IMG/VR virus record: IMGVR_UViG_3300044546_001769 | Span: 1-55,052 of that record | Length of the DNA stretch: 55,052 nt | From: a virus | Lineage: Duplodnaviria > Caudoviricetes | Reading direction: 5' to 3' (one strand) | The notes under the pieces: generated by a model | Told to the model about the DNA's origin: nothing | Seen by the model: the letters and a program-made list of their open reading frames with translations, nothing else | Database searches by the model: none | Shown here: positions 2,683 through 53,881 of the stretch, one piece after another | Layout: each line of letters begins with the position of its first letter | Numbering within the stretch: position 1 is the stretch's first letter | Position numbers and translations under genes: made by a program

Positions 2683-4500
2683 ATGATTTTAACCAATGTA
2701 CAACCATCGCCAAAAGACCCGCGGGATTACAAATATCCAACGGCTACACCAGCAACAACTTCTTCGCTGCCATTTTCAGTTGATCTACGTGAATTTGCGG
2801 GTGATATAGAACAACAAGGACAAACTGGTTCGTGTGTCGCAAATGCTGCAGTAAGTGCATTGGAAATATTATTAACACGACAAGGTCAATTTGAAAACTT
2901 GTCGCGACTATTTCATTATTGGAATCTACGTCAAGGTTATCCTGATCTTGCTGGTGTAGACAGTGGTTCTTATCCACGTGATGCATTTAAACTTGCAAAT
3001 CAAATTGGTATCTGCGATGAAATAACATGGCCTTTTGATGAATCAAAAGTAAATGTACAACCATCACAAGCTGCATTTGATGATGCGTCATCAGTTAAGG
3101 CTTTTGGATATTATTCTATTGCAATGGGATGGACACAAGAACACAGGGCAACATCGCTTCTTACAATTAAACAAGCAGTATCAAGCGGTTATCCTGTTTT
3201 GATTGCTGCTCATATAAACGCAGAATTTCAACAGATTTATTCAACTAATCTTGAAGGAACTCAATCACAGTTTGTTAATGCACAATTTCCAATTGGAGCA
3301 CACGCTGTCTTGGTTGTAGGTTATGCTGGAAATTCATTATTGATTGAAAACTCATGGGGTACAAGCTGGGGATGCAACGGCTATGCATTAATACCAGGTC
3401 TTGCATTAATGTTGGATACATTTGAAGCTTGGGTATGTACTGGCGTAAACGGAAATCAAATACCAAAACTTGCCAGCGCAACTCCGCTTGGCAATCCCCC
3501 AAAGTGGTGGCAAGTTGCACCTAATTTAACACCAGTTGCAGCTTGGGATGCCAAACGTGTTAATGGAGCTCAACTAATTGACGGTGTAGGTAATAACAAC
3601 ATAACAGCAACAAGTGAATTGATTAAAACAGACTTCCTATTTTTAGGTGTTGCTGGAAACAGTGACCCAATGACGTTATCGACACCTGTACCAATTCCTA
3701 GTGTAGGCGTTGTTGCTGGATTCTGGAGTCCAAAACGGCGAAACGTTCTGTTGTCAAAAGAATATGGTAACACCAGCAGTTATGCATTACATCTTTCAAG
3801 TGACGGCAATGGTTGGTATTCTAATAATGAAAGTTCTTATGAATATTACGGTCAATATGGTGAACTTGGAGAGCGTTATTTTGTTGCAATGGTAACACGT
3901 GGAGACGACTCAATTTTGTACGTTGACGGAAATTTAGTTGGCAACCCAATTAGCAGTAGCAGAACAATGAGTCATGTCGGGCTAATTGGTTATGCAACAA
4001 ATGGCAACGAGTTCAACCTTGACTCGGATGAATTTCTCCATGCTGTGGGCATTTGGTCTGGAGCGGCAACTCAAGATGATATTAAAGTAATTGAAGCAGC
4101 AGCTCGACTTGAATTAAAAGGTGCTAACATGACAAGTCGGGGCTTTGCAGCCCGAACAGGTCGAATGGAGTTCCCCATTCCTCAGCACCTTCTGCTTACG
4201 CCCGCACAACCACGATTCGTAGGTTCAACACTTACACGCCGTGATTACCAATTTGGTGGAAACGGACGAATCACGGGTACTGTAAAAGAAAAGGGCACGA
4301 CTGACCAACCGATACAACGGCGGGTGCAGCTGTATGACGAAACCAGCAAGGTAATGACCCGCGAGGCGTGGAGCAACCCTGTTACGGGCGCTTACCTTTT
4401 CGAAAACATCGACCCGTTGCTGACCTACACCATTATAAGTTATGACTACACAGGCGCGTACAAGGCTGTTGTAGCAAATGGTATAAAAGCGACAATATGA
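2683..4500 (+). CDS. Chimeric protein: papain-like C1A cysteine peptidase + LamG/ConA-like domain + C-terminal tail-cassette domain
   Basis: QQGQTGSCVANA (catalytic Cys), GAHAVLVVGY (His), ENSWGTSWG (Asn); LamG-like ILYVDG; C-terminal GNGRITGTVKEKG...RRVQLYDE...GAYLFENID. Confidence 0.85.
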   Translation: MILTNVQPSPKDPRDYKYPTATPATTSSLPFSVDLREFAGDIEQQGQTGSCVANAAVSALEILLTRQGQFENLSRLFHYWNLRQGYPDLAGVDSGSYPRDAFKLANQIGICDEITWPFDESKVNVQPSQAAFDDASSVKAFGYYSIAMGWTQEHRATSLLTIKQAVSSGYPVLIAAHINAEFQQIYSTNLEGTQSQFVNAQFPIGAHAVLVVGYAGNSLLIENSWGTSWGCNGYALIPGLALMLDTFEAWVCTGVNGNQIPKLASATPLGNPPKWWQVAPNLTPVAAWDAKRVNGAQLIDGVGNNNITATSELIKTDFLFLGVAGNSDPMTLSTPVPIPSVGVVAGFWSPKRRNVLLSKEYGNTSSYALHLSSDGNGWYSNNESSYEYYGQYGELGERYFVAMVTRGDDSILYVDGNLVGNPISSSRTMSHVGLIGYATNGNEFNLDSDEFLHAVGIWSGAATQDDIKVIEAAARLELKGANMTSRGFAARTGRMEFPIPQHLLLTPAQPRFVGSTLTRRDYQFGGNGRITGTVKEKGTTDQPIQRRVQLYDETSKVMTREAWSNPVTGAYLFENIDPLLTYTIISYDYTGAYKAVVANGIKATI

Positions 4501-12542: not shown

Positions 12543-12976
12543 AAGACGAACATATTCTAACACTGGTTGGATGGGTGGCATTTGTTATGACGTTGTTTTT
12601 TGGAACAATTGTATTTTATACATTTGACGGAACACCACCTTTTGAAATAAGCGACTCAGTTAGTAGCGTAACTAGAGAAGAAAATGGTAATTATGTACTA
12701 ACTGAAAGTCGCGGCTTTGTTGGGCATGATAGTCAAGTTCTTACGATATTTAGAACGTTGTATAAAAAGGAGGACGACAAGCACGTAAACAGCATTGAAG
12801 GCGGTTCTGTCATGAATCAAAATGATGATTATGTTGTTTTAAGAGCTATTCAAATTCCTCCACACTTGAATGGTTGGTGGTGTTCACGCGCTATTGTTTT
12901 TTGGAGACCGTCACTTTCACTTAAACAACACAGTTTAAATTTACCTGACCTTTGTTTTGAAATACCAAGAAAATGA
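12539..12976 (+). CDS. Membrane-anchored periplasmic protein
   Basis: N-terminal TM (LTLVGWVAFVMTLFFGTIVFY), beta-rich domain with two Cys; ATGA overlaps on both sides. Confidence 0.7.
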   Translation: MKDEHILTLVGWVAFVMTLFFGTIVFYTFDGTPPFEISDSVSSVTREENGNYVLTESRGFVGHDSQVLTIFRTLYKKEDDKHVNSIEGGSVMNQNDDYVVLRAIQIPPHLNGWWCSRAIVFWRPSLSLKQHSLNLPDLCFEIPRK

Positions 12977-13758
12977 AAAAAATATTTTTTGTATTAGTAT
13001 CATTGTTTATTTCTGTTTCTGTATTTGCACAATCTGCTAAAAAAATAAGAATAGTCACTGAAGACTTTCCTCCATTTCAAACATTACAAAATGGCGAAAT
13101 TGTTGGTCCAATGTACAGTGTAATGCAAGCAATTTGTAAAGAGGCAAAACTCTCGTGTAACATTGAATTGCTGGAATGGAAAGACGCATATAGACAAGCA
13201 CTAGATGGAAGTGCTGACGTTGTTTTCTCTATTTTATTGGAAGTGCCGGAGAGAGCTCAATTCTTTTACATGTCGCCGTCAATAGTAGATACAAGTTATT
13301 CATTGTTTGTTACAAGCCGAAACAAATGGAAATATACTGGATATGAATCACTTGAGGGCATGAAAATTGGAGCGTACGGTCCAAGTGGAACAAGTATTGT
13401 TGCTCAAGAATTAGTAAAAGGACGAGAAATTGCAGGCTTTTCTGTTGTTCCACTTACTATAGAACCAAGTATAGTCGAAAGTTTCCAGCAGCTGATTACT
13501 GGAAAGTATGGCGACAATGGAGCAGTCGTTGTCAATAAAGATGTTGGGCTAGCACTGTTGAAGAAACATTCTATTTTTGGACCCAAACCTGCCGGTGATA
13601 TTAAAAGCATAACGTACGGATTTGGTTTTTCTAAAAAGAGTCCAAATGCCGCAGAATTTCAAAAAATGGTAGACGCTCTTAGGCGTTTGCAAGATAATAA
13701 AACCATTGTTGAAACACTTCGCTGGCACGGCTTAAAAGCATCTCAACACAAAAGATAA
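12973..13758 (+). CDS. Periplasmic solute-binding protein, family 3 (amino-acid ABC type)
   Basis: Signal peptide ending VFA; IRIVTEDFPPF...G.ADVVFSI...ERAQFFYMSPSI...LEGMKIGAYGPSGT...YGFGFSKKS. Confidence 0.9.
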   Translation: MKKIFFVLVSLFISVSVFAQSAKKIRIVTEDFPPFQTLQNGEIVGPMYSVMQAICKEAKLSCNIELLEWKDAYRQALDGSADVVFSILLEVPERAQFFYMSPSIVDTSYSLFVTSRNKWKYTGYESLEGMKIGAYGPSGTSIVAQELVKGREIAGFSVVPLTIEPSIVESFQQLITGKYGDNGAVVVNKDVGLALLKKHSIFGPKPAGDIKSITYGFGFSKKSPNAAEFQKMVDALRRLQDNKTIVETLRWHGLKASQHKR

Positions 13759-30471: not shown

Positions 30472-30501
30472 TTTACTTTTAATCCAATTTCGTGTTATAA
30501 T
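30472..30501 (+). promoter_or_regulatory. Pre-replicative promoter (repeated motif)
   Basis: TTTACT-N18-TATAAT with TGn extension. Confidence 0.8.
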
Positions 30502-32229: not shown

Positions 32230-32304
32230 ACGGGTGAAGCTTAATTGGATAAGCAGCTGGCTTCTACCCAGTCGATAGTGCAAGTTCGAATCTTGTCACC
32301 CGTA
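32230..32304 (+). tRNA. tRNA-Arg(UCU), no encoded CCA
   Basis: Acceptor ACGGGTG/CACCCGT, D-stem GCTT/AAGC, anticodon stem GCTGG/CCAGT with loop CT-TCT-AC, T arm GCAAG-TTCGAAT-CTTGT. Confidence 0.85.
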
Positions 32305-32336
32305 CACAGCAAATTCAAACACTTCTGTAAAATATC

Positions 32337-32675: not shown

Positions 32676-32972
32676 ATGACTGTAGGTGTGAAATTTGATT
32701 CAGAAAAACCGATGATGAGTTTGTTGCCGCCTTTTGCAACTCTTGCCGTCGGTCGTGTTCTTACGATGGGTGCTAAAAAATACTCAGCTGGAAATTGGCG
32801 TCACGTTGAAAACGGACAACAACGGTATGCTGATGCAGCACTACGACATTTTTATGCATATATGTCCGGCGAAGAACGAGACCCAGAGTCTGGTGAAAAC
32901 CATATGGCACACGTAATATGTTGTGCTATGTTTATACTTGACGCCGCCGAAAGCGGCAATCCCTTGAAATGA
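32676..32972 (+). CDS. dATP/dGTP diphosphohydrolase-domain protein (DUF5664-like)
   Basis: GVKFDSEKP..SLLP...VLTMGAKKY...NW...RYADAALRH...DPESGENHMAH. Confidence 0.88.
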   Translation: MTVGVKFDSEKPMMSLLPPFATLAVGRVLTMGAKKYSAGNWRHVENGQQRYADAALRHFYAYMSGEERDPESGENHMAHVICCAMFILDAAESGNPLK

Positions 32973-37062: not shown

Positions 37063-37150
37063 GCGGCGTTAACTCAGCTGGCCGAGAGTAGCAGACTCAT
37101 AATCTGCCGGAGTAATCCCACCGTTGGTTCAAATCCAACACGCCGCACCA
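37063..37150 (+). tRNA. tRNA with CAU anticodon (Met or Ile2) and long variable arm
   Basis: Acceptor GCGGCGT/ACGCCGC-A-CCA, D-stem ACTC/GAGT, GCAGA-CTCATAA-TCTGC, 15-nt variable region with GGA-GTAA-TCC, GTTGG-TTCAAAT-CCAAC. Confidence 0.9.
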
Positions 37151-41441: not shown

Positions 41442-41729
41442 ATGATTACATTAAACGACATTAAAGTAGAGCCATATGAAGATAATGAGTATTCTATTAC
41501 GCTGCTGTCAACTGACGACGTTGGTATAAAATACAAATATGGCAAAGTTTCATTTGACGATGCAGAAGACGGCAGTGGTGAAGCCATCATGAATTTTGAT
41601 TATGATATTATTTCTGGAACACCTCGTGATCTTGAAGTTTTCCATAACACAATTGGCAGTGTTTTACAATTAATGATTGAAAATATGATCAAAGACAACT
41701 CAGTTGTATTCGCAGGTGGAACAGATTAA
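41442..41729 (+). CDS. gp40-position protein (head vertex assembly chaperone-like)
   Basis: Lies between uvsX and gp41; YKYGKVSF...NFDYDI; start re-called from 41367. Confidence 0.6.
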   Translation: MITLNDIKVEPYEDNEYSITLLSTDDVGIKYKYGKVSFDDAEDGSGEAIMNFDYDIISGTPRDLEVFHNTIGSVLQLMIENMIKDNSVVFAGGTD

Positions 41730-43132
41730 TGAGTCGTATTGAAACTACAATTCTTGGTAATTTGCTGGTTTCAGAAAAGTTTAGTCGAGCAGCACTGCCT
41801 TTCTTAAAGCCTGAATTTTTTCAGGACAAAAGCGATGCAGTGCTGTTTGAAGAAATCACACGATTTTTTCAACGACATAATAAACCAGCAACACGTGAAA
41901 TTCTAAATATTGAAGTATCCAACAGAACAGATCTCTCTGATAAGGAACTTGAAAATACCGAAGCATCTATAAGAGATCTGCCAGACGAGCAAACAAACTT
42001 TGATTGGCTTATTGAGCAAACAGAAGCATTTTGTAAAAAACGAAGTCTCTATCTTGCTATTCTTGACAGCATTAAAATTATCGAAGGTGATAAAAAATCT
42101 TCTTTAACTGAGGAAGCAATTCCTAAACTGTTGCAGGATGCATTGGCTGTTAGTTTCAATAGTGAGGTAGGACATAATTATCTTGAAGATGCTGATGCTC
42201 GTTTTGATGCATATTCACTAGCTGAAGATAAAATACCGTTTGATCTTGATGAACTAAATGAAACTACAAAAGGTGGTATGAGTCGTAAAGCGCTCTATTG
42301 TGTAGCTGCTCAAAGCGGTGGAGGCAAATCTATTTTCATGACTCATACTGCTGCAAGTACTCTACGTCTTGGTAAAAATGTTCTCTACATTACTATGGAA
42401 ATGAGCGAGAATAAAATTGCTGAACGTATTGATGCAAATTTAATGAATATCAAAGTCGATGAAATTAAGAATTTGACAAAAAATGAGTTTGTAAGTCGTG
42501 TTGATCGTATTGCTAAGAAGACTCATGGCAAACTCTACATCAAGGAATATCCAACAGGTGGAGCTCATTCCGGTCATTTTCGCGGTTTGCTTGAAGAGTT
42601 AAAAACAAAACAAAATTTTATTCCTGATCTTGTTATTGTTGACTATCTTGGTATCTGTGCTAGTGCTCGTGTTCGTATGGGCGGAACAGTGAATACATAT
42701 TCATATCTGAAAGCGGTTGCTGAAGAACTTCGCGCGCTAGCCGTTGAGCATAATGTGGCAATTTTAACTGGAGCTCAGTTAAATCGCGGTGGTTATTCTA
42801 ATAGTGATGCTGATATGAGTAGCGTTGCAGATTCAATGGGTATTGTAATGACGTTGGATTTTTTCTTTGCGCTTATAGCAACAGATGAACTTTCAGAAAT
42901 GGATCAAGTACTTGTAAAGGTATTGAAAAATCGTGGTGGAGACTTGCCTAAATTTTTATTGGGTCTAAATAAGTCAAAAATGACTTTCTTCAATCTTGAA
43001 TCTTCAGCTCAAAAAGGACTGTTGCCAATCGCTAACAGTGGAAGTAAGAAACAAAAGCCTGAACCAGACGTTCCTCTATTCGATAAAACACGAACCGGAC
43101 GAGCAGTTTCTGCAGAAGGCTTTAAATTTTAA
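41729..43132 (+). CDS. gp41: Replicative helicase
   Basis: AQSGGGKS, YITMEMSE..IAERIDAN, IKEYPT, VDYLGICAS, AEELRALAVE. Confidence 0.96.
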   Translation: MSRIETTILGNLLVSEKFSRAALPFLKPEFFQDKSDAVLFEEITRFFQRHNKPATREILNIEVSNRTDLSDKELENTEASIRDLPDEQTNFDWLIEQTEAFCKKRSLYLAILDSIKIIEGDKKSSLTEEAIPKLLQDALAVSFNSEVGHNYLEDADARFDAYSLAEDKIPFDLDELNETTKGGMSRKALYCVAAQSGGGKSIFMTHTAASTLRLGKNVLYITMEMSENKIAERIDANLMNIKVDEIKNLTKNEFVSRVDRIAKKTHGKLYIKEYPTGGAHSGHFRGLLEELKTKQNFIPDLVIVDYLGICASARVRMGGTVNTYSYLKAVAEELRALAVEHNVAILTGAQLNRGGYSNSDADMSSVADSMGIVMTLDFFFALIATDELSEMDQVLVKVLKNRGGDLPKFLLGLNKSKMTFFNLESSAQKGLLPIANSGSKKQKPEPDVPLFDKTRTGRAVSAEGFKF

Positions 43133-43237
43133 AGGAAATTAACAATGATCAGACATTTTTTACGAAAATATATTTTTGGTTGTTTTGATACTACACACTG
43201 TTGATTTTGTTAAATAGTAAAAACTAAGGAGAAGAAA

Positions 43238-44113
43238 ATGATAAAGAAAATTGTCACATTTATTTGTTTTTCATTATTGACAACCGCGGTTTTTGCTGCA
43301 AACTACACTTTGTGGGTCAACGGTCGTGGAGGTGGTGGTCAGGACGGCAACTACGCAGACTTCAAATATTGGGGTCCTGCAACTACAGATGCCGGCGTAA
43401 ACAAAAAGGCCGTTAACTGGAATGGTTACGACCGTGTTGCCACCAAAAACTACCAAATTCGTGATGCCCTCGACTGCTTCTGCACTGGCACCAACTGGTG
43501 CTACATTGGAGCACACAGTGCAGGCAATCTGCAAACAGGTTACGCGCTTTCTTTGTTTGGCGGAACAACCCGTCAAGTTAAAAATGCCACACCCAATGCT
43601 TCAGGCGTGTGCGGCAACGTAGCAGGCAACACCACCCAAACCGGCTGGAATATCAAGTGGGTAAACGTAGCTTCTGGCGCCGCAGGTGGCAGCGAGTTGT
43701 CTGACTTAGGCAGCTGGGCTATGTCAGAACCTTTAGTTTCTGACCTGAAAACCACCACCTCACGCGCTATGTACGACCACAACCAAACCCGTGGTAAATG
43801 GTTCAACATGTATGCAGGCGCTAAAGGCACAGTCTATGCAGCTGTATTGTCCGGACAAGATGACCAAGCTGTGTCTTACCACTCCACTGGTGGAGTATCC
43901 GGTAGCGGCGGCACAGCACTGTGCAACCCATCCGACTGGTGGTGCAATGACCTGACTATGGGCACAGCATCCAACGAAGGCGGTAGCCGTAAATGGAGCT
44001 TCCATACCGTTAAACTGCGCGACGACAAAGAGCAATTTGACCACTATGCCCGCAGCAACTGGCAAGGCATTATTGATCCGGTTCGTAAAGATGTTGTTCT
44101 AATGGCACGATAA
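43238..44113 (+). CDS. Secreted alpha/beta-hydrolase (lipase-like) protein
   Basis: SD aaggag; signal peptide ending VFA; LWVNGR, GAHSAG nucleophile elbow, AAGGSEL, GQDDQAV, DHY; Cys pairs. Confidence 0.75.
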   Translation: MIKKIVTFICFSLLTTAVFAANYTLWVNGRGGGGQDGNYADFKYWGPATTDAGVNKKAVNWNGYDRVATKNYQIRDALDCFCTGTNWCYIGAHSAGNLQTGYALSLFGGTTRQVKNATPNASGVCGNVAGNTTQTGWNIKWVNVASGAAGGSELSDLGSWAMSEPLVSDLKTTTSRAMYDHNQTRGKWFNMYAGAKGTVYAAVLSGQDDQAVSYHSTGGVSGSGGTALCNPSDWWCNDLTMGTASNEGGSRKWSFHTVKLRDDKEQFDHYARSNWQGIIDPVRKDVVLMAR

Positions 44114-44201
44114 ATATTGCTTGTTATAATATTAGAAAAATTAAAATGTTAAAAAAATCAGTATTGTTTTGGAGTTACCGACACAATTTTAGGCATTAAA
44201 A

Positions 44202-46460
44202 ATGTTAAGAGCCTTTATTTTAGCACTAATGTTGTGCGGCTCTGCTCACGCTTTACCGATATCGGTAAACAACAACTTTACTTCCAAGTCAATTGGCGGC
44301 GTTGTAGAGGTCTTTGAAGACAAATCGGGTGAAATTGAGATAGCTGACGTTTTAAGCAGTTCTCACATTCAAAACCAATTTGCTAGCATGCATAGTGAAA
44401 CGCCTAACTTTGGCTATACAGACAGCAGTTTTTGGGCACGTATCAACCTGAACGATTCTCGCAAGAGCGCGTTCTCAGCTTATGCAGAACCACTATACTT
44501 AAAGTACGGGTATGCACAGACTGACTACGTTGCTATCTGGTGCTATAACGACTTTAAATCAGAAGTCATGCACCAAAAAGCGGGAGATCATGTGCCTCGT
44601 GCTGAGTGGTCTAGTAGCTATAGAGAGCCGGTATTTGTTATTCCTAGCGATGCCAGAGTTTGTTACCTCAACGTCAAGACGACTTCTGCAGTTCAGCTCT
44701 CCCTCGTACTCTATTCAGAAAAAGAGTTCAATAAGTTCTTTGTTTTAGATAGTGCGCTGCAAGCAATGTACTTTGGCGCACTGCTAATCTCTGCCGCATA
44801 CAACCTGCTGATAGCTTTCTCATTACGCTCTAAAGCATACTTTGCCTACACCGTATTTTTACTGACGTACGGTACTTTTCAGATTTCCTACAACGGCTAT
44901 GGCTATGCCTTATTTTGGACTGACATGATTGGTTTTGCGGACAAGATTCTACCTTTTATGATTCTGACGATTGGCGTAACTTCATGTACTTTCACTTCGC
45001 TGCTCTTGAATCTGAAAAAAGAGTCACCACGATTTCATAGGCTAGGCTTTGCCTTGATGATAATAATTGGAACTCTTGCAGTAATAACACTGTTTGCCGA
45101 TTACAAGATAGCTCTAATGTCCACTTTTATATACAGTCCGGTTTGGGCTTTCTTCCTGCTGGGTTCTGGCTGTTACTTGGCTTACAAAGGTATGCGCGTA
45201 GCTAAGATTTACCTAATGGGTTGGTGGATGTTTGTCATCGGGACTATGGTTATTATTTGTAGTCGAATAGGCTACCTACCAGTAAATGACATAACCACTA
45301 ATGCAACGCAGATAGCTACAGTGCTTGAGTTTTTGCTATTTTCCTTTGCGCTTTCAGATCGTATCAATACAACTCAAAGTGACCTAATCAAAGCTCAAAA
45401 GAAGATTGCAGAAAATCTTAAAGCGTCAGAGCAAGAGCTTGAAACCAAGGTTGAGCAACGCACCAAAGAGCTATCAGATACCCTTGAAGAATTGCAGTCC
45501 ACGCAAACACAACTCGTCCAAGCTGAGAAGTTGGCGTCGCTAGGCTTGCTGGTGAGTAACGTAGCCCATGAACTTAATTCACCTATTGCTTCTATCATGT
45601 CAAGCGGAGATTCTATTGCATCGTCGGTCAATGAGATGGTAGATAACTTGCCTGAGATTATTCGACAGTTAGAAGGTGGTGACAGGGAATTGTTCTTTGA
45701 CTTGATAATGCACCCTAAAGTGCAACGTGACTTTGTGCCAAAAGAGGAACGACAACAAACACGCGAGGTTACTGCAAAGCTCAACGAACGCGGTATTGAT
45801 GGTGCAATGCGCAAAGCCCGTCTGCTAGTGCGACTAGGTGTGTACAAGGAGGTTGATAAGTTTATGCCATTACTCCAATCCAAGGACAGCGATTTTGCTC
45901 TGAACGTAGCAGCGGGGATTGGAGATGTTTTAAGTGGTACACACAACATCAACTCCGCGGTTGAACGTGTAAACCGCATCATCTTTGCGCTCAAAGAACT
46001 TGCAGGCACGGAGCGTGTCATGGCAATGGAAACAACCTACCTTCACGTAACGATAGAAAAGGCGCTGAACTCGTACCGACACCTGATGAAAGACGTTAAG
46101 GTAGTTTTCAATCACGCGCCAATAGAAGCTATACAGTGCGACCCCGAAGCCATGCAGCAAGTGTGGACACATTTAATCATCAATGCACTTCATGCCATGA
46201 AGTACAAAGGTACGTTAGCAATTGACCTATCATGTATAGACAACCAAGCAAGAGTGTCTGTAAAGGACGAAGGTACCGGCATAGGACTTGACGTGCAAGC
46301 AAAGATGTTTGATGCTTTCTACACAACGAAAACATCAGGCGAAGGTGGTGGAATGGGACTGGCGATTGTTAAGAAAGTTGTAGAGCAGCACCGAGGACGC
46401 ATACAGGTGACTTCTGAAATTGGCGTTGGTACAACCTTTGTTGTCTTTTTACCTTTATGA
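44202..46460 (+). CDS. Sensor histidine kinase with 7TMR-DISM extracellular and 7TM domains
   Basis: PNFGYTDSSFW (DISMED2), ~7 TM helices, H-box VAHELNSP, N-box QVWTHLIINA, G1 DEGTGI, F-box FDAFYTTK, G2 GGGMGLAIV. Confidence 0.92.
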   Translation: MLRAFILALMLCGSAHALPISVNNNFTSKSIGGVVEVFEDKSGEIEIADVLSSSHIQNQFASMHSETPNFGYTDSSFWARINLNDSRKSAFSAYAEPLYLKYGYAQTDYVAIWCYNDFKSEVMHQKAGDHVPRAEWSSSYREPVFVIPSDARVCYLNVKTTSAVQLSLVLYSEKEFNKFFVLDSALQAMYFGALLISAAYNLLIAFSLRSKAYFAYTVFLLTYGTFQISYNGYGYALFWTDMIGFADKILPFMILTIGVTSCTFTSLLLNLKKESPRFHRLGFALMIIIGTLAVITLFADYKIALMSTFIYSPVWAFFLLGSGCYLAYKGMRVAKIYLMGWWMFVIGTMVIICSRIGYLPVNDITTNATQIATVLEFLLFSFALSDRINTTQSDLIKAQKKIAENLKASEQELETKVEQRTKELSDTLEELQSTQTQLVQAEKLASLGLLVSNVAHELNSPIASIMSSGDSIASSVNEMVDNLPEIIRQLEGGDRELFFDLIMHPKVQRDFVPKEERQQTREVTAKLNERGIDGAMRKARLLVRLGVYKEVDKFMPLLQSKDSDFALNVAAGIGDVLSGTHNINSAVERVNRIIFALKELAGTERVMAMETTYLHVTIEKALNSYRHLMKDVKVVFNHAPIEAIQCDPEAMQQVWTHLIINALHAMKYKGTLAIDLSCIDNQARVSVKDEGTGIGLDVQAKMFDAFYTTKTSGEGGGMGLAIVKKVVEQHRGRIQVTSEIGVGTTFVVFLPL

Positions 46461-46473
46461 GTTAGTGATTAAA

Positions 46474-47064
46474 ATGAATACAAATAAAATCGATTGTCAT
46501 GTAATAAATTCAAACGAGCCAGACGAATGGAAGCGACAATGTCTAGACAGCATAGAAACTGCACCAATTATTCTACACGAGGTCTCTGGAATTCCTGGAA
46601 AAGTTGGTGCAGCACGACATGCTGGATTTTCTAAAGGCAACAAACCGTTTGTATCTTTTGTTGATTTTGACGATTTTTATAATTCATTTGCATTTAATGC
46701 TCTGCAGAACTGTTTAGAAAATAATCCTTCAGTAGTTCTTGCATATACTAATGAGGTATATGTTAATGAGCAAGGTCACGTCATGTGCGAACGAAACCTT
46801 TCATACAGCAGAAAAAAACACATCTCTTATGGCGATCATGTTCATGGTTTAATGCTTATTAGACGCTCTGCATTGTCAACAGTTCTTGATTCAATCGTTG
46901 ACGTTGAAAATTATTCAGAATGGTTCTTAACACTTCAACTCTCAAAGCTTGGAGAAATACGACACTTGCCGATCATAGGTCGATTCTGGCGACAGCACTC
47001 GCGGCAATCGCATTTGAAAGCTGATCCTGTTACTGTTAAAAAAATAAAAAATCTTTTCACGTAG
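46474..47064 (+). CDS. Glycosyltransferase family 2-like protein
   Basis: QCLDSI, GAARHAGF, FVSFVDFDD (DxD), WRQH; start re-called from 46420. Confidence 0.8.
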   Translation: MNTNKIDCHVINSNEPDEWKRQCLDSIETAPIILHEVSGIPGKVGAARHAGFSKGNKPFVSFVDFDDFYNSFAFNALQNCLENNPSVVLAYTNEVYVNEQGHVMCERNLSYSRKKHISYGDHVHGLMLIRRSALSTVLDSIVDVENYSEWFLTLQLSKLGEIRHLPIIGRFWRQHSRQSHLKADPVTVKKIKNLFT

Positions 47065-47066
47065 TT

Positions 47067-47095
47067 TTTACTTTTAATGGTTTTTATTGTATAAT
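47067..47095 (+). promoter_or_regulatory. Pre-replicative promoter (repeated motif)
   Basis: TTTACT-N17-TATAAT. Confidence 0.8.
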
Positions 47096-47115
47096 TATTC
47101 TTTTGAAGGAATATT

Positions 47116-47346
47116 ATGAGCATCGATTTGCCAAATATGAGTACTAAAGAGATCATTTTATTAAATAAAATATGGTCGTGCGATTCACTAGATGAATTTA
47201 AAACTTGGAAAGAGAGTTTATGTGAATCTGACCAGCTTCTTGCAAATGATCTGCTTTTTGCACTCTCTGCAGAAATAGAACTTCAAGAAGAACAATCGTA
47301 CAGTGAAGCTCAACAACTAATAGAAAAAATAAAAAGGAAGATATGA
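47116..47346 (+). CDS. Hypothetical protein
   Basis: SD aagga; LLNKIWSCDS..EF..WK.SL. Confidence 0.7.
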   Translation: MSIDLPNMSTKEIILLNKIWSCDSLDEFKTWKESLCESDQLLANDLLFALSAEIELQEEQSYSEAQQLIEKIKRKI

Positions 47347-47999
47347 AAAATCAAAAAGGTTTTACACTAGTAGAAATAGCCATCGTAATGGTCATTATTG
47401 GCTTGCTCTTGGGCGGTGTTCTAAAGGGTCAGGAAATGATTGAAAATGCGCGGGTAAAAGATACAGTGAATGTTATGAAAGGTGTTCAGACTGCGTATAA
47501 TGCATATCAAGACCGATTTAAAGCAATTCCCGGTGATGAAACTGCTACTGTCATGACAAATCGTGGTTGGGCTGGTAACACTGGTCCGGGTGTTTCAAAC
47601 GGTTCGTTGGCAATTCCACTCGCACAAACATTTACTAATGGCGGTGATCAAGCGGGTTTTTGGCGCGCTCTGCGTGCTAGTGGCTTTATGACTGGCGATC
47701 CAGCTGCTCCAGCAACAGCTGCAGGTTTGCCTACTTTGAGCACCGGTGGCTTGGTTGGAATCAATTCTGGTCCATCATATGGATTGCCTGGTCCTGTTGT
47801 ATGTGCTAGTGGTCTTTCGACAAAGCAAGTTGCTGCTATGGATCTAATGATTGACGGAACAGGTGCTGCAAACAATACTGGTTCATTTAGAGCAGCTACA
47901 GGCGCAGCAACTCCGCTTGTTCCTGTTGCAGTAGCACCAGCTGCAACATTCTATTCTGACAACGTTCTCACTAAATGGACTGCTTGTATTACTATCTAA
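47343..47999 (+). CDS. Type IV pilin/pseudopilin-like protein with prepilin N-terminal methylation site
   Basis: MKNQKG|FTLVEIAIVMVIIGLLLGGVLKGQEMIENAR; AYQDRFKAIPGD; D.MIDG; C-terminal Cys pair. Confidence 0.92.
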   Translation: MKNQKGFTLVEIAIVMVIIGLLLGGVLKGQEMIENARVKDTVNVMKGVQTAYNAYQDRFKAIPGDETATVMTNRGWAGNTGPGVSNGSLAIPLAQTFTNGGDQAGFWRALRASGFMTGDPAAPATAAGLPTLSTGGLVGINSGPSYGLPGPVVCASGLSTKQVAAMDLMIDGTGAANNTGSFRAATGAATPLVPVAVAPAATFYSDNVLTKWTACITI

Positions 48000-48054
48000 A
48001 TCTAAAAGGTTTGACTGGAGAAAACAACGTGCGGTAATGATCGATTATCAAGAC

Positions 48055-48062
48055 CATAAATA
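48055..48062 (+). promoter_or_regulatory. Candidate late promoter CATAAATA inside an 11-bp inverted repeat arm
   Basis: 7/8 match to TATAAATA, 20 nt before ATG 48083. Confidence 0.55.
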
Positions 48063-48082
48063 ATACATTTTAGGGAAATTAA

Positions 48083-48187
48083 ATGCATAAAATGGTCTTG
48101 ATTTGTGTATTGATGTGCGTTGTTTCTGGCTTTGCACTACCATCTTTGTACTATAAAACGAATGAGTCTGATATGGAGATCGCTTAA
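48083..48187 (+). CDS. Small hydrophobic peptide (34 aa), not in the ORF track
   Basis: SD aggga; MHKMVLICVLMCVVSGFALPSLYYKTNESDMEIA; TAATG coupling to the next gene. Confidence 0.55.
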   Translation: MHKMVLICVLMCVVSGFALPSLYYKTNESDMEIA

Positions 48188-48561
48188 TGAGCACTTCTAG
48201 ACACACCGTTTATTCTTGGAAATACGACTCCCCTGGAATTTTTTTAAAAGCAGGACAGTCTGTTAGTATTATAGCTGATCCACATGATCGTTGGAAAGAT
48301 TTAAACATTGAATGCGACGCCGATGGTTGGTGGAGTTACAATCCTCTTTATAATCTTAATTTTATAAAGAAGAGCATGGATTTTCCATATGAAAATTTCA
48401 TGAAGCTGTGTGCAAGAGTCGGTAATGAAAAATTTGTAATAGGAAAATTTTCAAACTTTACTCCAAAGACATCTGGATATCTTGAACTTTTTGCAAATGA
48501 TGTTTCGTGGTTGAGATGGAATAATACCGGTTCAATTACAGTTACAATTGCAAAAGAATAA
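48187..48561 (+). CDS. LecA/PA-IL-like lectin-domain protein
   Basis: SPGIFLKAGQSVSIIA...W...CDADG...LCARVG..KFVIG...SGYLELFAND....NNTGSITVTI. Confidence 0.7.
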   Translation: MSTSRHTVYSWKYDSPGIFLKAGQSVSIIADPHDRWKDLNIECDADGWWSYNPLYNLNFIKKSMDFPYENFMKLCARVGNEKFVIGKFSNFTPKTSGYLELFANDVSWLRWNNTGSITVTIAKE

Positions 48562-48574
48562 AACTGGTTTAAAC

Positions 48575-48769
48575 ATGACTGAAACTAAAGCATCTTCTTT
48601 TGGTAATGGATTTTCTGATGCACTCAGCGGAAGATTGCCAAATAAAAACATTCAACTTCCTGAAGCACAGCGTTCGTATCTTCTTGGTTATAACGCCGGA
48701 AAAGTACGAAAGGCTGATTTTTTTAAAACTATTGCTGAAGAAGAAAAAAGATCACAAAACACGCAATAG
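48575..48769 (+). CDS. Small protein resembling ribosome modulation factor (Rmf/CrpP-like)
   Basis: FGNGFSDALSGR...QRSYLLGYNAG vs RMF GYQAGIAGR...QRSQWLGGW; start re-called from 48548. Confidence 0.5.
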   Translation: MTETKASSFGNGFSDALSGRLPNKNIQLPEAQRSYLLGYNAGKVRKADFFKTIAEEEKRSQNTQ

Positions 48770-49060: not shown

Positions 49061-49333
49061 ATGGATAGCAGAGCATTGTACAGCAATGAGGCGGCACGTG
49101 AAAAAGTTAACAATATTTTTGATATTGTATTGATTGCCAGTTGCAGATATAGAGAACTTAAACGCGGTTATATCCCGATGGTCAGCGTAAAAGGCGGTCC
49201 AGTTCAAACGGTACTTGAAGAAATTGAACGTGGAATTGTTGGACAAGACTATGTAGTAAAAAACGTTGAAAATAATCGTAAACAGCGTTATGAAAATTTT
49301 AAACGGGATCAGCGCCGAAATGGAAACAATTAA
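49061..49333 (+). CDS. rpoZ: RNA polymerase omega subunit-like protein
   Basis: EAAREKVNNIFDIVLIASCRYREL.RG..PMV....GPVQTVLEEIERG.VG matches omega (EKIGNRFDLVLVAARRARQ...KTTVIALREIEEGLI); SD ggag. Confidence 0.8.
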   Translation: MDSRALYSNEAAREKVNNIFDIVLIASCRYRELKRGYIPMVSVKGGPVQTVLEEIERGIVGQDYVVKNVENNRKQRYENFKRDQRRNGNN

Positions 49334-53455: not shown

Positions 53456-53881
53456 TTGAAAGACAATACACTACAAAATACTGTAGATTGGTTTGCTGAG
53501 GCAGTCCGTACTCCAACTGATAAAAATAAAGTTGTTCAGATCGGCGTACACATTGAAGAATTTTCAGAGATGTTGGCATCTATTGGTTTGGCAGAATGCG
53601 CGGACAGTATGTCTCACGCTGCTGATTTTTTTAAGGCAGGACAGGTCAGTTACTCTGACCTCAAAATAGATCGGCAGGAATTACTAGACAGTCTTGCCGA
53701 TCAGATAGTAACATCATGTGGAATTGCACACCTTTTTGGAATGGACATTATTGGTGCGCTCAATGAAGTTAATCGGTCTAACTGGAGCAAGTTTGAAAAC
53801 GGTCGGGCAATTTTTGATGAAAATGGCAAGATCAAAAAAGGTGTTAACTACTCAAAACCAAAACTAGAGTCATTTATATGA
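53456..53881 (+). CDS. MazG-like / PRA-PH-like nucleotide pyrophosphohydrolase
   Basis: QIGVHIEEFSE, ELLDSLADQIVT, EVNRSNWSKF...DENGKIKKG.NY.KP; TTG start. Confidence 0.85.
   Translation: MKDNTLQNTVDWFAEAVRTPTDKNKVVQIGVHIEEFSEMLASIGLAECADSMSHAADFFKAGQVSYSDLKIDRQELLDSLADQIVTSCGIAHLFGMDIIGALNEVNRSNWSKFENGRAIFDENGKIKKGVNYSKPKLESFI

Follow-up and report, generated by a model that had tools for sequence, protein, structure and literature searches.

A T4-like freshwater phage carries a complete sensor histidine kinase gene that stems from a large sensor family in the probable bacterial host, and the explanation that we favour as a whole, with a probability of roughly 0.55, is that this intact kinase feeds a signal into the two-component network of the infected host. 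The window analysed here (55,052 nt) is the entire linear IMG/VR record IMGVR_UViG_3300044546_001769, with a CheckV completeness of 31%, and covers part of the genome of a T4-like freshwater phage, whose gene set suggests a lytic lifestyle. The kinase gene is complete and truly phage-borne, since the junctions of its block are bridged by other contigs, a phage-type promoter motif stands ahead of it and an orthologue is labelled as belonging to an uncultured phage. It is an intact accessory ('moron') gene of host origin, with phage genes on both sides, TGTTATAAT at 44122, a third-position GC content (GC3) away from that of the phage core and no counterpart in related phages.

The gene is predicted to encode a complete class I sensor histidine kinase comprising a signal peptide, a DISMED2 domain, seven transmembrane helices, a coiled coil, a DHp domain with an insert and a CA domain (Table 1). 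The combination of signal peptide, DISMED2 and 7TM had been proposed in an earlier reading made without database searches (the sequence-only reading), and it is upheld by Pfam matches, by the AF2 model, in which a beta-sandwich (residues 20–172) is followed by seven helices (173 to ~390) and then by the kinase part, and by hydropathy with the AXA site. The N-terminus, MLRAFILALMLCGSAHA followed by LP, is hydrophobic and ends in this AXA site, as read from the sequence, making it a putative signal peptide. Simple hydropathy gives five strong transmembrane segments, the remaining two helices being amphipathic.

Table 1 Features of the kinase region, with positions in the window.
Feature	Position	Strand	Remarks
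gp41-type DnaB-like replicative helicase	41729..43132	+	phrog_19 2e-113; Pfam DnaB_C; GC3 0.23; left flank of kinase block
ORF291, secreted Cys-rich protein, AHSAG motif	43238..44113	+	Host-derived; first gene of foreign-composition block
GATAAATA, likeness to T4 late-promoter core	44109..44116	+	Read from sequence; weak lead
TGTTATAAT, extended -10 promoter-like motif	44122..44130	+	72 nt ahead of kinase start codon
Sensor histidine kinase gene, 752 aa	44202..46460	+	ATG start; TGA stop 46458-46460
Signal peptide, residues 1-17	44202..44252	+	AHA-LP site; hydropathy and sequence reading
Periplasmic 7TMR-DISMED2 (PF07696) beta-sandwich, residues 34-172	44301..44717	+	Pfam E 2e-22; AF2 strands 20-172
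7TMR-DISM_7TM (PF07695) seven-helix membrane module, residues 185-387	44754..45362	+	Pfam E 1.3e-38; profile positions 3-205/205
DHp helix 1, residues 431-489	45492..45668	+	AF2 helix; invariant phospho-acceptor H456 (codon 45567-45569)
Helical insert in DHp hairpin, residues 490-562 (73 residues)	45669..45887	+	AF2 helices 493-503, 513-529, 535-544, 548-559
DHp helix 2, residues 563-600	45888..46001	+	AF2
CA domain, residues 601-752, N/G1/F/G2 boxes	46002..46457	+	HATPase_c residues 647-752, E 2.3e-24; Foldseek HK853, ZraS
GT2-like phage-family gene	46474..47064	+	phrog_19440 1e-63; GC3 0.28; right flank, 13 nt past kinase stop

The catalytic boxes, likewise described as intact on first reading, are so throughout an alignment of 34 relatives of 32–85% identity. 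In the H box (VAHELNSP), H456, E457, N459 and P461 are invariant in 34/34 aligned sequences, as are N661 of the N box, D689-x-G691-x-G693 of G1, F706 of the F box and G713, G715, G717 and G719 of G2, and the DHp insert carries an invariant E516 and R517. The HisKA Pfam match stays under the gathering score (16.8 vs 26.9 bits) and covers only residues 447–475, in helix 1, probably because of the 73-residue insert in the hairpin. In the AF2 model, the kinase core takes a canonical HK853/ZraS-type fold (Foldseek matches to HK853 and ZraS, E 4e-12), and the ZraS structure 9jfj matches the profile of the kinase family at 3e-40. AtoS and ZraS, kinases with NtrC-family partners, also match the transmitter best by sequence, and it thus appears nearest to this type, although no NCBIfam model reaches its cut-off (AtoS 151 vs 646, T2SS_HK 140 vs 450 and ZraS 127 vs 479 bits) and the AtoS and ZraS matches are confined to the kinase core. 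The phage kinase differs from both in its sensor, and the DHp insert is missing from the matched solved structures. A PADLOC scan returned just a 21-bit match to the CA domain. The case also documents an uncharacterised kinase family in which the DHp hairpin has a conserved helical insert.

In Pseudomonas aeruginosa, the Gac/Rsm network includes the hybrid kinases RetS and LadS, which have 7TMR-DISM sensors, and RetS blocks GacS through heterodimerisation. The phage kinase has the sensor module type of these proteins (DISMED2 and 7TM), and a LadS-annotated JGI protein (P0038) matches at 42% identity across the sensor, a stretch equal to 59% of the query. However, RetS and LadS are hybrids with a C-terminal receiver (REC) domain, whereas the phage kinase ends at residue 752 within the CA domain and differs further in its sub-threshold HisKA, its DHp insert and its AtoS/ZraS-like transmitter. 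A search for CsrA (PF02599) gave no match in the metagenome-assembled genome (MAG) G001, an incomplete genome of the likely host lineage. The sequence-only interpretation of a complete, phage-borne gene stands, and its analogy with RetS, LadS and Gac/Rsm does not. A better frame is to regard the phage kinase as one more member of a host family of ~23 mostly orphan kinases that share a core.

The setting of the gene is that of a phage, with a T4-like replication module on its left and the phrog_19440 gene on its right. The uvsX-gp41 synteny is found in 76/81 related IMG/VR loci. Neither a kinase nor a REC domain occurs in any of these 81 loci, which surround related gp41 genes, or in five related phage records, and the gene is therefore dispensable for such phages. 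The region after gp41 is variable, with none of nine downstream genes common to any of the 81 loci, and no notable flanking repeats were found around the block formed by ORF291 and the kinase. The INPHARED phage collection gave no close DNA match to the window and only kinase matches of <=34% identity or <=59% coverage, and scans of IMG/VR with the kinase as query found no relative.

In composition, the kinase and ORF291 form one host-like block, with GC3 values of 0.44 and 0.50, respectively, vs 0.22–0.30 in phage core genes and 0.43–0.57 in the G001 paralogues. The G001 contig that holds a 95% homologue of ORF291 (G001:C19) is full of housekeeping genes. In this proteobacterial MAG, 50 places match the kinase and ~23 kinase cores were counted manually, at 37–53% identity to the phage kinase; the annotated cores sit among housekeeping genes and only one, the G001:C1 paralogue, has an adjoining stand-alone REC, so that the G001 genes with this core are mostly orphan. 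Paralogues such as P0011 (G001:C106, 782 aa) and P0020 (G001:C117) have the architecture of the phage kinase and share the DHp helical insert with its invariant E516/R517, with 37–47% identity over the full length and up to 53% in the core; unlike them, the phage kinase is embedded in phage DNA, downstream of a promoter motif of phage type, and carries 17 fixed clade differences. Pilin-like, lectin-like and GT-like genes were not found in G001, bar a 42% match to the N-terminus of the pilin. In the phylogeny, the kinase and its close relatives, nine sequences in all, group as a single clade (SH-aLRT 100) with a long stem (0.82 changes per column), nested among bacterial groups. Nesting within the bacterial paralogue radiation and host-like GC3 together argue that the kinase derives from the large sensor family of the probable host.

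The context of a phage is known for two of the nine clade members, namely this record and, by source label, P0122, a protein on a 305,528-nt contig deposited as CAB4129709.1, 'BaeS Signal transduction histidine kinase [uncultured Caudovirales phage]'. P0122 shows the same set of Pfam domains, and at the 90% level it clusters with P0008, a protein with 67% identity to the query over 99% of its length; P0122 may belong to another phage lineage, and the other seven sequences could be bacterial. Identity within the clade ranges from 66 to 94%, whereas full-length identity to any bacterial sequence found is 37–47%, and, among the matches listed in a metagenome scan with the kinase, L081 and L082 lie at 42–43%. 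Mean pairwise identity within the clade is highest in DHp helices 1 and 2 (0.83), compared with 0.64–0.78 for DISMED2, 7TM, the insert and CA and 0.42–0.58 for the signal peptide and linker, a pattern that, with the clade itself, speaks for retention of the gene.

On the favoured reading, kinase synthesis would start after infection from a host sigma-70-type promoter, and the protein would insert in the inner membrane with its sensor facing the periplasm, dimerise and autophosphorylate on H456. It would then act as a kinase, a phosphatase or both towards the response regulator(s) with which the host's paralogous kinases work, and a host network in which many kinases converge on few regulators would gain from the phage one more input line, responsive to a cue in the periplasm or envelope. 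That a phage should supply an input to the two-component signalling of its host is plausible. The case is tractable, with a likely donor lineage identified and the catalytic residues for control mutants known, and since this lineage joins the same core to many sensors, mostly orphan, the search for a target regulator is narrowed (47 REC matches in G001).

A bolder version, which we regard as doubtful, is that a virulent T4-like phage equips the infected cell with a sense organ of its own, so that an environment-dependent decision, taken via two-component phosphotransfer in this host network, alters host behaviour or the timing of infection, with the changes in DHp helix 1 reflecting a retuning of partners. 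Candidate cues would be glycans or lysis products of neighbouring cells, Ca2+ or lipid freed by the upstream secreted lipase-like protein. The usual regulatory genes of phages are small repressors, sigma and anti-sigma factors and quorum-signal receptors. With a membrane sensor kinase of full length in a T4-like phage, the virus would partly set what an infected cell perceives around it.

The same helix bears on an inhibitory role, in which the phage kinase would form mixed dimers with host paralogues, as RetS does with GacS, or serve as a phosphatase sink, and so shut down one of the host's sensing pathways during infection. The identity seen with the host paralogue cores leaves room for mixed DHp dimers, and the fixed clade differences are densest in DHp helix 1 (4/17, or 6.8 per 100 residues vs 0–2.7 elsewhere). 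We nevertheless consider inhibition unlikely, as the whole phage clade keeps H456 and the ATP-binding boxes (N, G1, F and G2) unchanged and a pure dimer-poison would need none of them.

The absence of a response regulator from the window, already noted from the sequence, was confirmed in a six-frame search with PF00072 (0 REC matches, while the positive control matched in 12/14 genomes) and in a Pfam scan of the 56 ORFs of the window, which found neither REC nor an output domain. The window represents only ~31% of the phage genome and the orphan status of the kinase is thus unproven; a partner regulator could lie in the missing ~69% and form with the kinase a private system controlling the phage's own genes. 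The low completeness leaves room for such a partner, the exact kinase protein occurs on two contigs of which the longest reaches 80,728 nt, and the surface of DHp helix 1 departs from the bacterial consensus (A464S and loss of the acidic residue at 474). Still, the bacterial family is mostly orphan too, bacterial partners usually adjoin their kinase and none adjoins here, and the five related T4-like records, of which two have a completeness of 100%, gave no REC match, all of which makes a private system quite improbable.

The kinase might instead be a recently captured passenger in a hyperplastic spot after gp41, with no role in the phage and intact merely for want of time, which would make it an ordinary case of host-gene capture. 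The lack of drift of GC3 toward the phage value means that the capture may be recent and leaves long retention by phages unproven; the variability of the post-gp41 region and a weak ribosome-binding site (AGG, 10–12 nt upstream) point the same way. We give this little credence given the distance from any bacterial sequence found, the diversification of a clade that includes another phage-labelled sequence, the promoter and the state of the neighbouring captured gene, since ORF291 and G001:C19 show a dN/dS of 0.042 (dS 0.757, dN 0.031). The TGnTATAAT that the first reading had placed upstream of the kinase is exactly there, as TGTTATAAT, and identical 9-mers stand at 30493, 33675, 36708 and 49886, each intergenic between + strand genes; TGNTATAAT has 14 copies in the window vs 3.9 expected, a count that 0/100 shuffles reach. 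A promoter of the TGTTATAAT type is missing from the bacterial flank of the ORF291 homologue. As for the late-promoter-like GATAAATA, the motif ATAAATA is rarer than expected (6 copies vs 21.3 +/- 4.6), with 6/6 copies on the + strand. Contigs of an RNA run (X15) cover 43338–43587, 43958–44182 and 47246–47454 without the kinase body, and may reflect DNA carry-over.

Continuity of the region was assessed with contigs from sequencing runs, of which those with a small share (X3–X19) indicate a habitat no more closely than their 'lake/freshwater metagenome' labels. A 23,685-nt contig of run X1, which may be the source sample, spans 41500–48700 with 0 differences, and identical contigs of run X2, from another study, bridge both 43080–43258 (gp41 stop to ORF291) and 44076–44404 (ORF291 end to kinase start). 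A contig of run X3 covers 44096–44429 with five differences, and the five X3 variants listed for the kinase comprise three synonymous and two conservative changes. Chimeric assembly is unlikely because contigs of an independent study bridge gp41-ORF291 and ORF291-kinase, and although the 43.2–46.5 kb block is unlike its flanks in composition, bacterial DNA joined onto a phage contig is scarcely credible when the X1 contig covers the whole region, the kinase stop lies just 13 nt from a phage-family gene and the intergenic DNA is phage-like.

Precedent for phage-borne kinases exists in metagenomic surveys, which describe phoR in soil viral contigs (vOTUs; PMC10987575), histidine kinases encoded before the curli (T8SS) clusters of pelagiphages (PMC9599517) and, in phages that infect ammonia oxidisers, two-component proteins (bioRxiv 10.64898/2026.05.02.722434). 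In the passages concerned, these kinases are host-type and are proposed to steer host regulation, without biochemical proof; those passages mention neither a 7TMR-DISM sensor nor a T4-like phage.

The upstream gene ORF291 is 95% identical in amino acids to G001:C19 over residues 15–291 and 73% identical to a paralogue, and belongs to a family of 64–91% identity with named matches in Betaproteobacteria. A freshwater betaproteobacterium is the probable host. Searches of Pfam and PHROG, of INPHARED and, by profile, of PDB sequences gave no match, and the IMG/VR scan gave no relative. Adjacency of ORF291 and the kinase was not seen in bacteria, with 0 ORF291 matches in 188 loci retrieved around other genes; matches occur in 3/191 loci searched, all three being G001:C19, retrieved for ORF291 itself. 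The AF2 model of ORF291 has a mean pLDDT of 42.9, and the nearest named Atlas clusters are PGAP1/DUF676 lipase-like (0.91–0.92), which we take as a lead only.

An intact sensor histidine kinase of host type is encoded in the phage DNA of the window, with a phage-type promoter motif upstream, and in the probable donor lineage the same kinase forms a large family whose members are mostly orphans. The sequence-only reading had described a complete kinase with all its boxes and a DISMED2 and 7TM sensor, and this description holds for the 752-residue protein: Pfam matches both sensor modules, which follow in the same order in the AF2 model (mean pLDDT 78.9), and the H box (H456, E457, N459, P461), N box (N661), G1 box (D689, G691, G693), F box (F706) and G2 box (G713, G715, G717, G719) are intact and invariant in an alignment of 34 relatives (32–85% identity). 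The model comprises a beta-sandwich (residues 20–172), seven membrane helices and a long helix up to residue 420, followed by DHp helix 1, four short helices, DHp helix 2 and the catalytic ATP-binding (CA) domain. The kinase core groups with HK853 and ZraS, both in Foldseek and in a profile search of PDB sequences. The four short helices form an insert in the DHp hairpin (which carries the phospho-acceptor His) that is common to the whole kinase family, with E516 and R517 invariant in 34/34 members, and is not present in the solved kinases matched. This insert likely explains the low HisKA score, as the Pfam match covers helix 1 only (16.8 bits, under the 26.9-bit cut-off).

Table. Location, third-position GC (GC3) and mean pairwise identity within the close kinase clade for features of the window.
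Feature	Position	Strand	GC3	Clade identity	Basis
Collagen-like tail fibre genes	left end of window	+			PHROG
Papain-family cysteine protease domain	2683-4500	+			
Family-3 periplasmic solute-binding domain	12973-13758	+			
tRNA-Arg(tct)	32230-32305				
dATP/dGTP diphosphohydrolase N-terminal domain	32676-32972				1.7e-32
tRNA-Met(cat)	37063-37150				
gp41 helicase	41729-43132	+			PHROG match
ORF291	43238-44113	+	0.50		
Kinase	44202-46460	+	0.44		
7TMR-DISMED2	residues 34-172			0.69	Pfam, E 2e-22
7TMR-DISM_7TM	residues 185-387			0.78	Pfam, E 1.3e-38
DHp helix 1	residues 431-489			0.83	AF2
DHp-hairpin insert	45669-45887 (residues 490-562)			0.64	AF2
DHp helix 2	residues 563-600			0.83	AF2
CA				0.77	AF2
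HATPase_c	residues 647-752				Pfam, E 2.3e-24
GT2-like gene	46474-47064				phrog_19440
Prepilin-type protein gene	47343-47999		0.27		
Lectin-like ORF	48187-48561				
GT-like, orf76, pilin-like and lectin-like genes			0.26-0.28		
Phage core genes			0.22-0.30		
Omega/Rpb6-like ORF	49061-49333				PF01192
MazG-like pyrophosphohydrolase	53456-53881				

The window is linear (55,052 bases, CheckV completeness 31%), and all its sizeable genes lie on the + strand. It can reasonably be taken as part of a lytic T4-like phage, with two thirds of the genome outside the record, because PHROG matches include gp55 late sigma factor, gp47/gp46, gp45 sliding clamp, gp44/gp62 clamp loader, RegA, gp43 polymerase and UvsX, and no integrase or repressor family was found among the 54 ORFs scanned. 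The closest cultured polymerases to its gp43, at only 42% identity, are those of T4-like cyanophages, and no DNA-level match was found in INPHARED. The papain-family and solute-binding domains each occur within a large ORF of the presumed structural region, and both tRNA genes lie inside the replication module. The diphosphohydrolase domain and the MazG-like gene hint at nucleotide-pool editing, and the PF01192 match (32.4 bits, above the 26-bit cut-off) marks a possible phage-encoded RNAP omega subunit.

The TGnTATAAT seen ahead of the kinase from sequence alone is present as TGTTATAAT at exactly 44122–44130, with only a weak −35 (ATGGCA). The same 9-mer lies in intergenic spacers at 30493, 33675 (before gp44), 36708 and 49886, with TTTACTTTTA at −35 distance upstream of three of these four copies, and TGNTATAAT occurs 14 times in the window against 3.9 expected, a count reached by 0/100 shuffles. 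By sequence, the spacer motifs look like early or middle promoters of the phage. The T4 late-promoter core, ATAAATA, is strongly under-represented: where 21.3 ± 4.6 copies would be expected, the window has 6, all on the + strand (12064, 17797, 29329, 35338, 44110 and 48056); one of them, GATAAATA, lies 86–93 nt 5′ of the kinase start codon, and others precede regA and the lectin-like gene.

We propose that host RNA polymerase would transcribe the kinase early and that the protein, having one signal peptide and seven helices, would be inserted via Sec so that the sensor faces outward and the kinase part lies within the cell. It would then dimerise, autophosphorylate on H456 and act as kinase and/or phosphatase on the regulator or regulators serving host paralogues. 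The earlier proposal that the phage places its own sensor in a host network has partial support, and its RetS/LadS, Gac/Rsm model is not retained. The kinase shares its 7TMR-DISM sensor type with RetS and LadS, but is not related to them in the transmitter: it has no receiver domain, HisKA falls under the cut-off, and among named kinases it comes nearest to AtoS, ZraS and 'T2SS_HK', with scores far under curated cut-offs. For these reasons, and as CsrA was not found in the incomplete genome of G001, a MAG of the likely host lineage, we do not assign the kinase to the RetS/LadS, Gac/Rsm class. A RetS-like inhibitory mixed dimer, or a phosphate sink, is a rather unlikely role.

No response regulator had been noticed in the window, and a search of six frames and of 56 Pfam-scanned ORFs likewise found no receiver (REC) domain in this 31% complete record. 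The partner regulator could sit in the unsequenced part of the phage genome, which we consider distinctly unlikely; neither HATPase_c nor REC was found in five related records, of which two are complete (165–171 kb). The preferred reading is action on host regulators. In G001, 50 places match the kinase, corresponding by manual count to ~23 separate kinase cores (37–53% identity) and ~13 DISMED2-7TM sensors. On the 15 contigs annotated, 7TMR-DISM, HAMP, Tll0287-like or REC modules accompany the core in the same protein, the kinase genes are frequently tandem and surrounded by housekeeping genes, and a single kinase, on contig C1, has an adjacent stand-alone receiver. Among 30 relatives of G001, core matches were confined to G011 (40–43%), and 78 of the best 80 loci in a GTDB species scan were at ≤30% identity, the remaining two being G001. 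The G001 lineage is the probable donor; the candidate host family is well defined, and the case has a clear route to testing. The one-core kinases of G001, with varied sensors and mostly without a neighbouring regulator, constitute an undescribed many-kinase system. The record name of G001, Akkermansia muciniphila, looks like a wrong label; the housekeeping genes (pilZ-holB-tmk-mltG) and chemotaxis genes (cheZ, MCP, cheB) on loci L168 and L177–L191 are proteobacterial.

GC rises at 43–48 kb and resolves into two gene kinds by GC3, high in ORF291 and the kinase and phage-like in the genes beyond, so the foreign block is 43238–46460 only. ORF291 encodes a secreted, Cys-rich protein of 291 residues (AF2 model poor, pLDDT 42.9) with no Pfam or PHROG family and an AHSAG motif presumably resembling that of lipases. 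Its residues 15–291 are 95% identical to the product of a gene on contig C19 of G001 (L177 11753–13716), which is adjoined by a 73% paralogue. The housekeeping genes on C19 (GC 0.50), namely nadB-like, panD, tatD, pilZ, holB, tmk, mltG, cheZ, an HDOD protein gene and tex, place this contig on the chromosome of a motile proteobacterium. The two copies share 86.9% of 831 nt (dS 0.757, dN 0.031, dN/dS 0.042) and are 100% identical over the final ~110 nt, with unrelated signal peptides and flanks. The protein identity, dN/dS and identical end point to host-to-phage capture, possibly with later recombination. Identity is 64–91% among the best 120 of 1713 ORF291 matches, in which the four named rows are all Betaproteobacteria (Caenimonas, Methylibium, Rubrivivax and Chitinimonas). 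The kinase, too, is on sequence grounds a host-derived regulatory gene carried by the phage.

Seven database proteins (P0002–P0008) share 67–94% identity with the kinase, and P0122, in one 90% cluster with P0008, is CAB4129709.1, labelled by its source 'BaeS Signal transduction histidine kinase [uncultured Caudovirales phage]' (305,528-nt contig). In a 51-row tree, nine rows including the window kinase form one clade (SH-aLRT 100, stem 0.82) nested among bacterial groups with G001 copies; phage context is known for only two of the nine. Seventeen columns are fixed in the clade unlike the bacterial consensus, four of them in DHp helix 1. The H+4 position, important for phosphatase activity in EnvZ-type kinases, is S in the phage clade and T in most bacterial members, a conservative change. 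Related T4-like phages are without the kinase gene: uvsX-gp41 synteny is kept in 76 of 81 IMG/VR loci around gp41 homologues (42–59% identity), and the kinase, ORF291 and seven other downstream genes are absent from all 81. Kinase GC3 shows no drift towards the phage value, and its history may be one of recent capture, repeated host exchange, or transfer among unrelated phages of one host group. That the gene is a recent passenger without function has, in our view, a low probability.

A literature search matched no paper on a phage-borne 7TMR-DISM gene, and none to 'phage/viral histidine kinase' as a phrase or to 'Uncultured Caudovirales phage' with 'histidine kinase'. Published surveys do describe phage-borne kinases: in the passages covered, phoR is reported on soil viral contigs (PMC10987575), pelagiphages have kinases ahead of their curli clusters (PMC9599517), and phages of ammonia oxidisers encode two-component proteins (bioRxiv 10.64898/2026.05.02.722434). 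A survey of jumbo phages (PMC7824862) mentions, in the passages covered, no more than a divergent Rec domain that is not part of a kinase system.

The kinase region is not an assembly artefact, and a chimeric block, the refuter named earlier, has a negligible probability: run X1, perhaps the source sample itself, has a 23,685-nt contig across 41500–48700 with zero differences, and run X2 (other sample and study) has identical contigs over 43080–43258 and 44076–44404, which span the gp41–ORF291 and ORF291–kinase junctions. A contig of a third run, X3, covers 44096–44429 with 5 differences, and the exact kinase protein is recorded in NCBI, JGI and Logan, on one contig of 80,728 nt and on a shorter one.

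The phrog_19440 gene, GT2-like and of a phage family, starts 13 nt past the kinase stop, and its sole INPHARED match is in the 309-kb Xanthomonas phage Xoo-sp13 (30.5% identity). The small lectin-like ORF matches PA-IL weakly (20.3 bits, below the 22.5-bit cut-off), with no counterpart found in G001. The prepilin-type gene, phage-like in GC3, encodes KGFTLVE as its N-methylation motif, and its match to a GspG-like family is weak.
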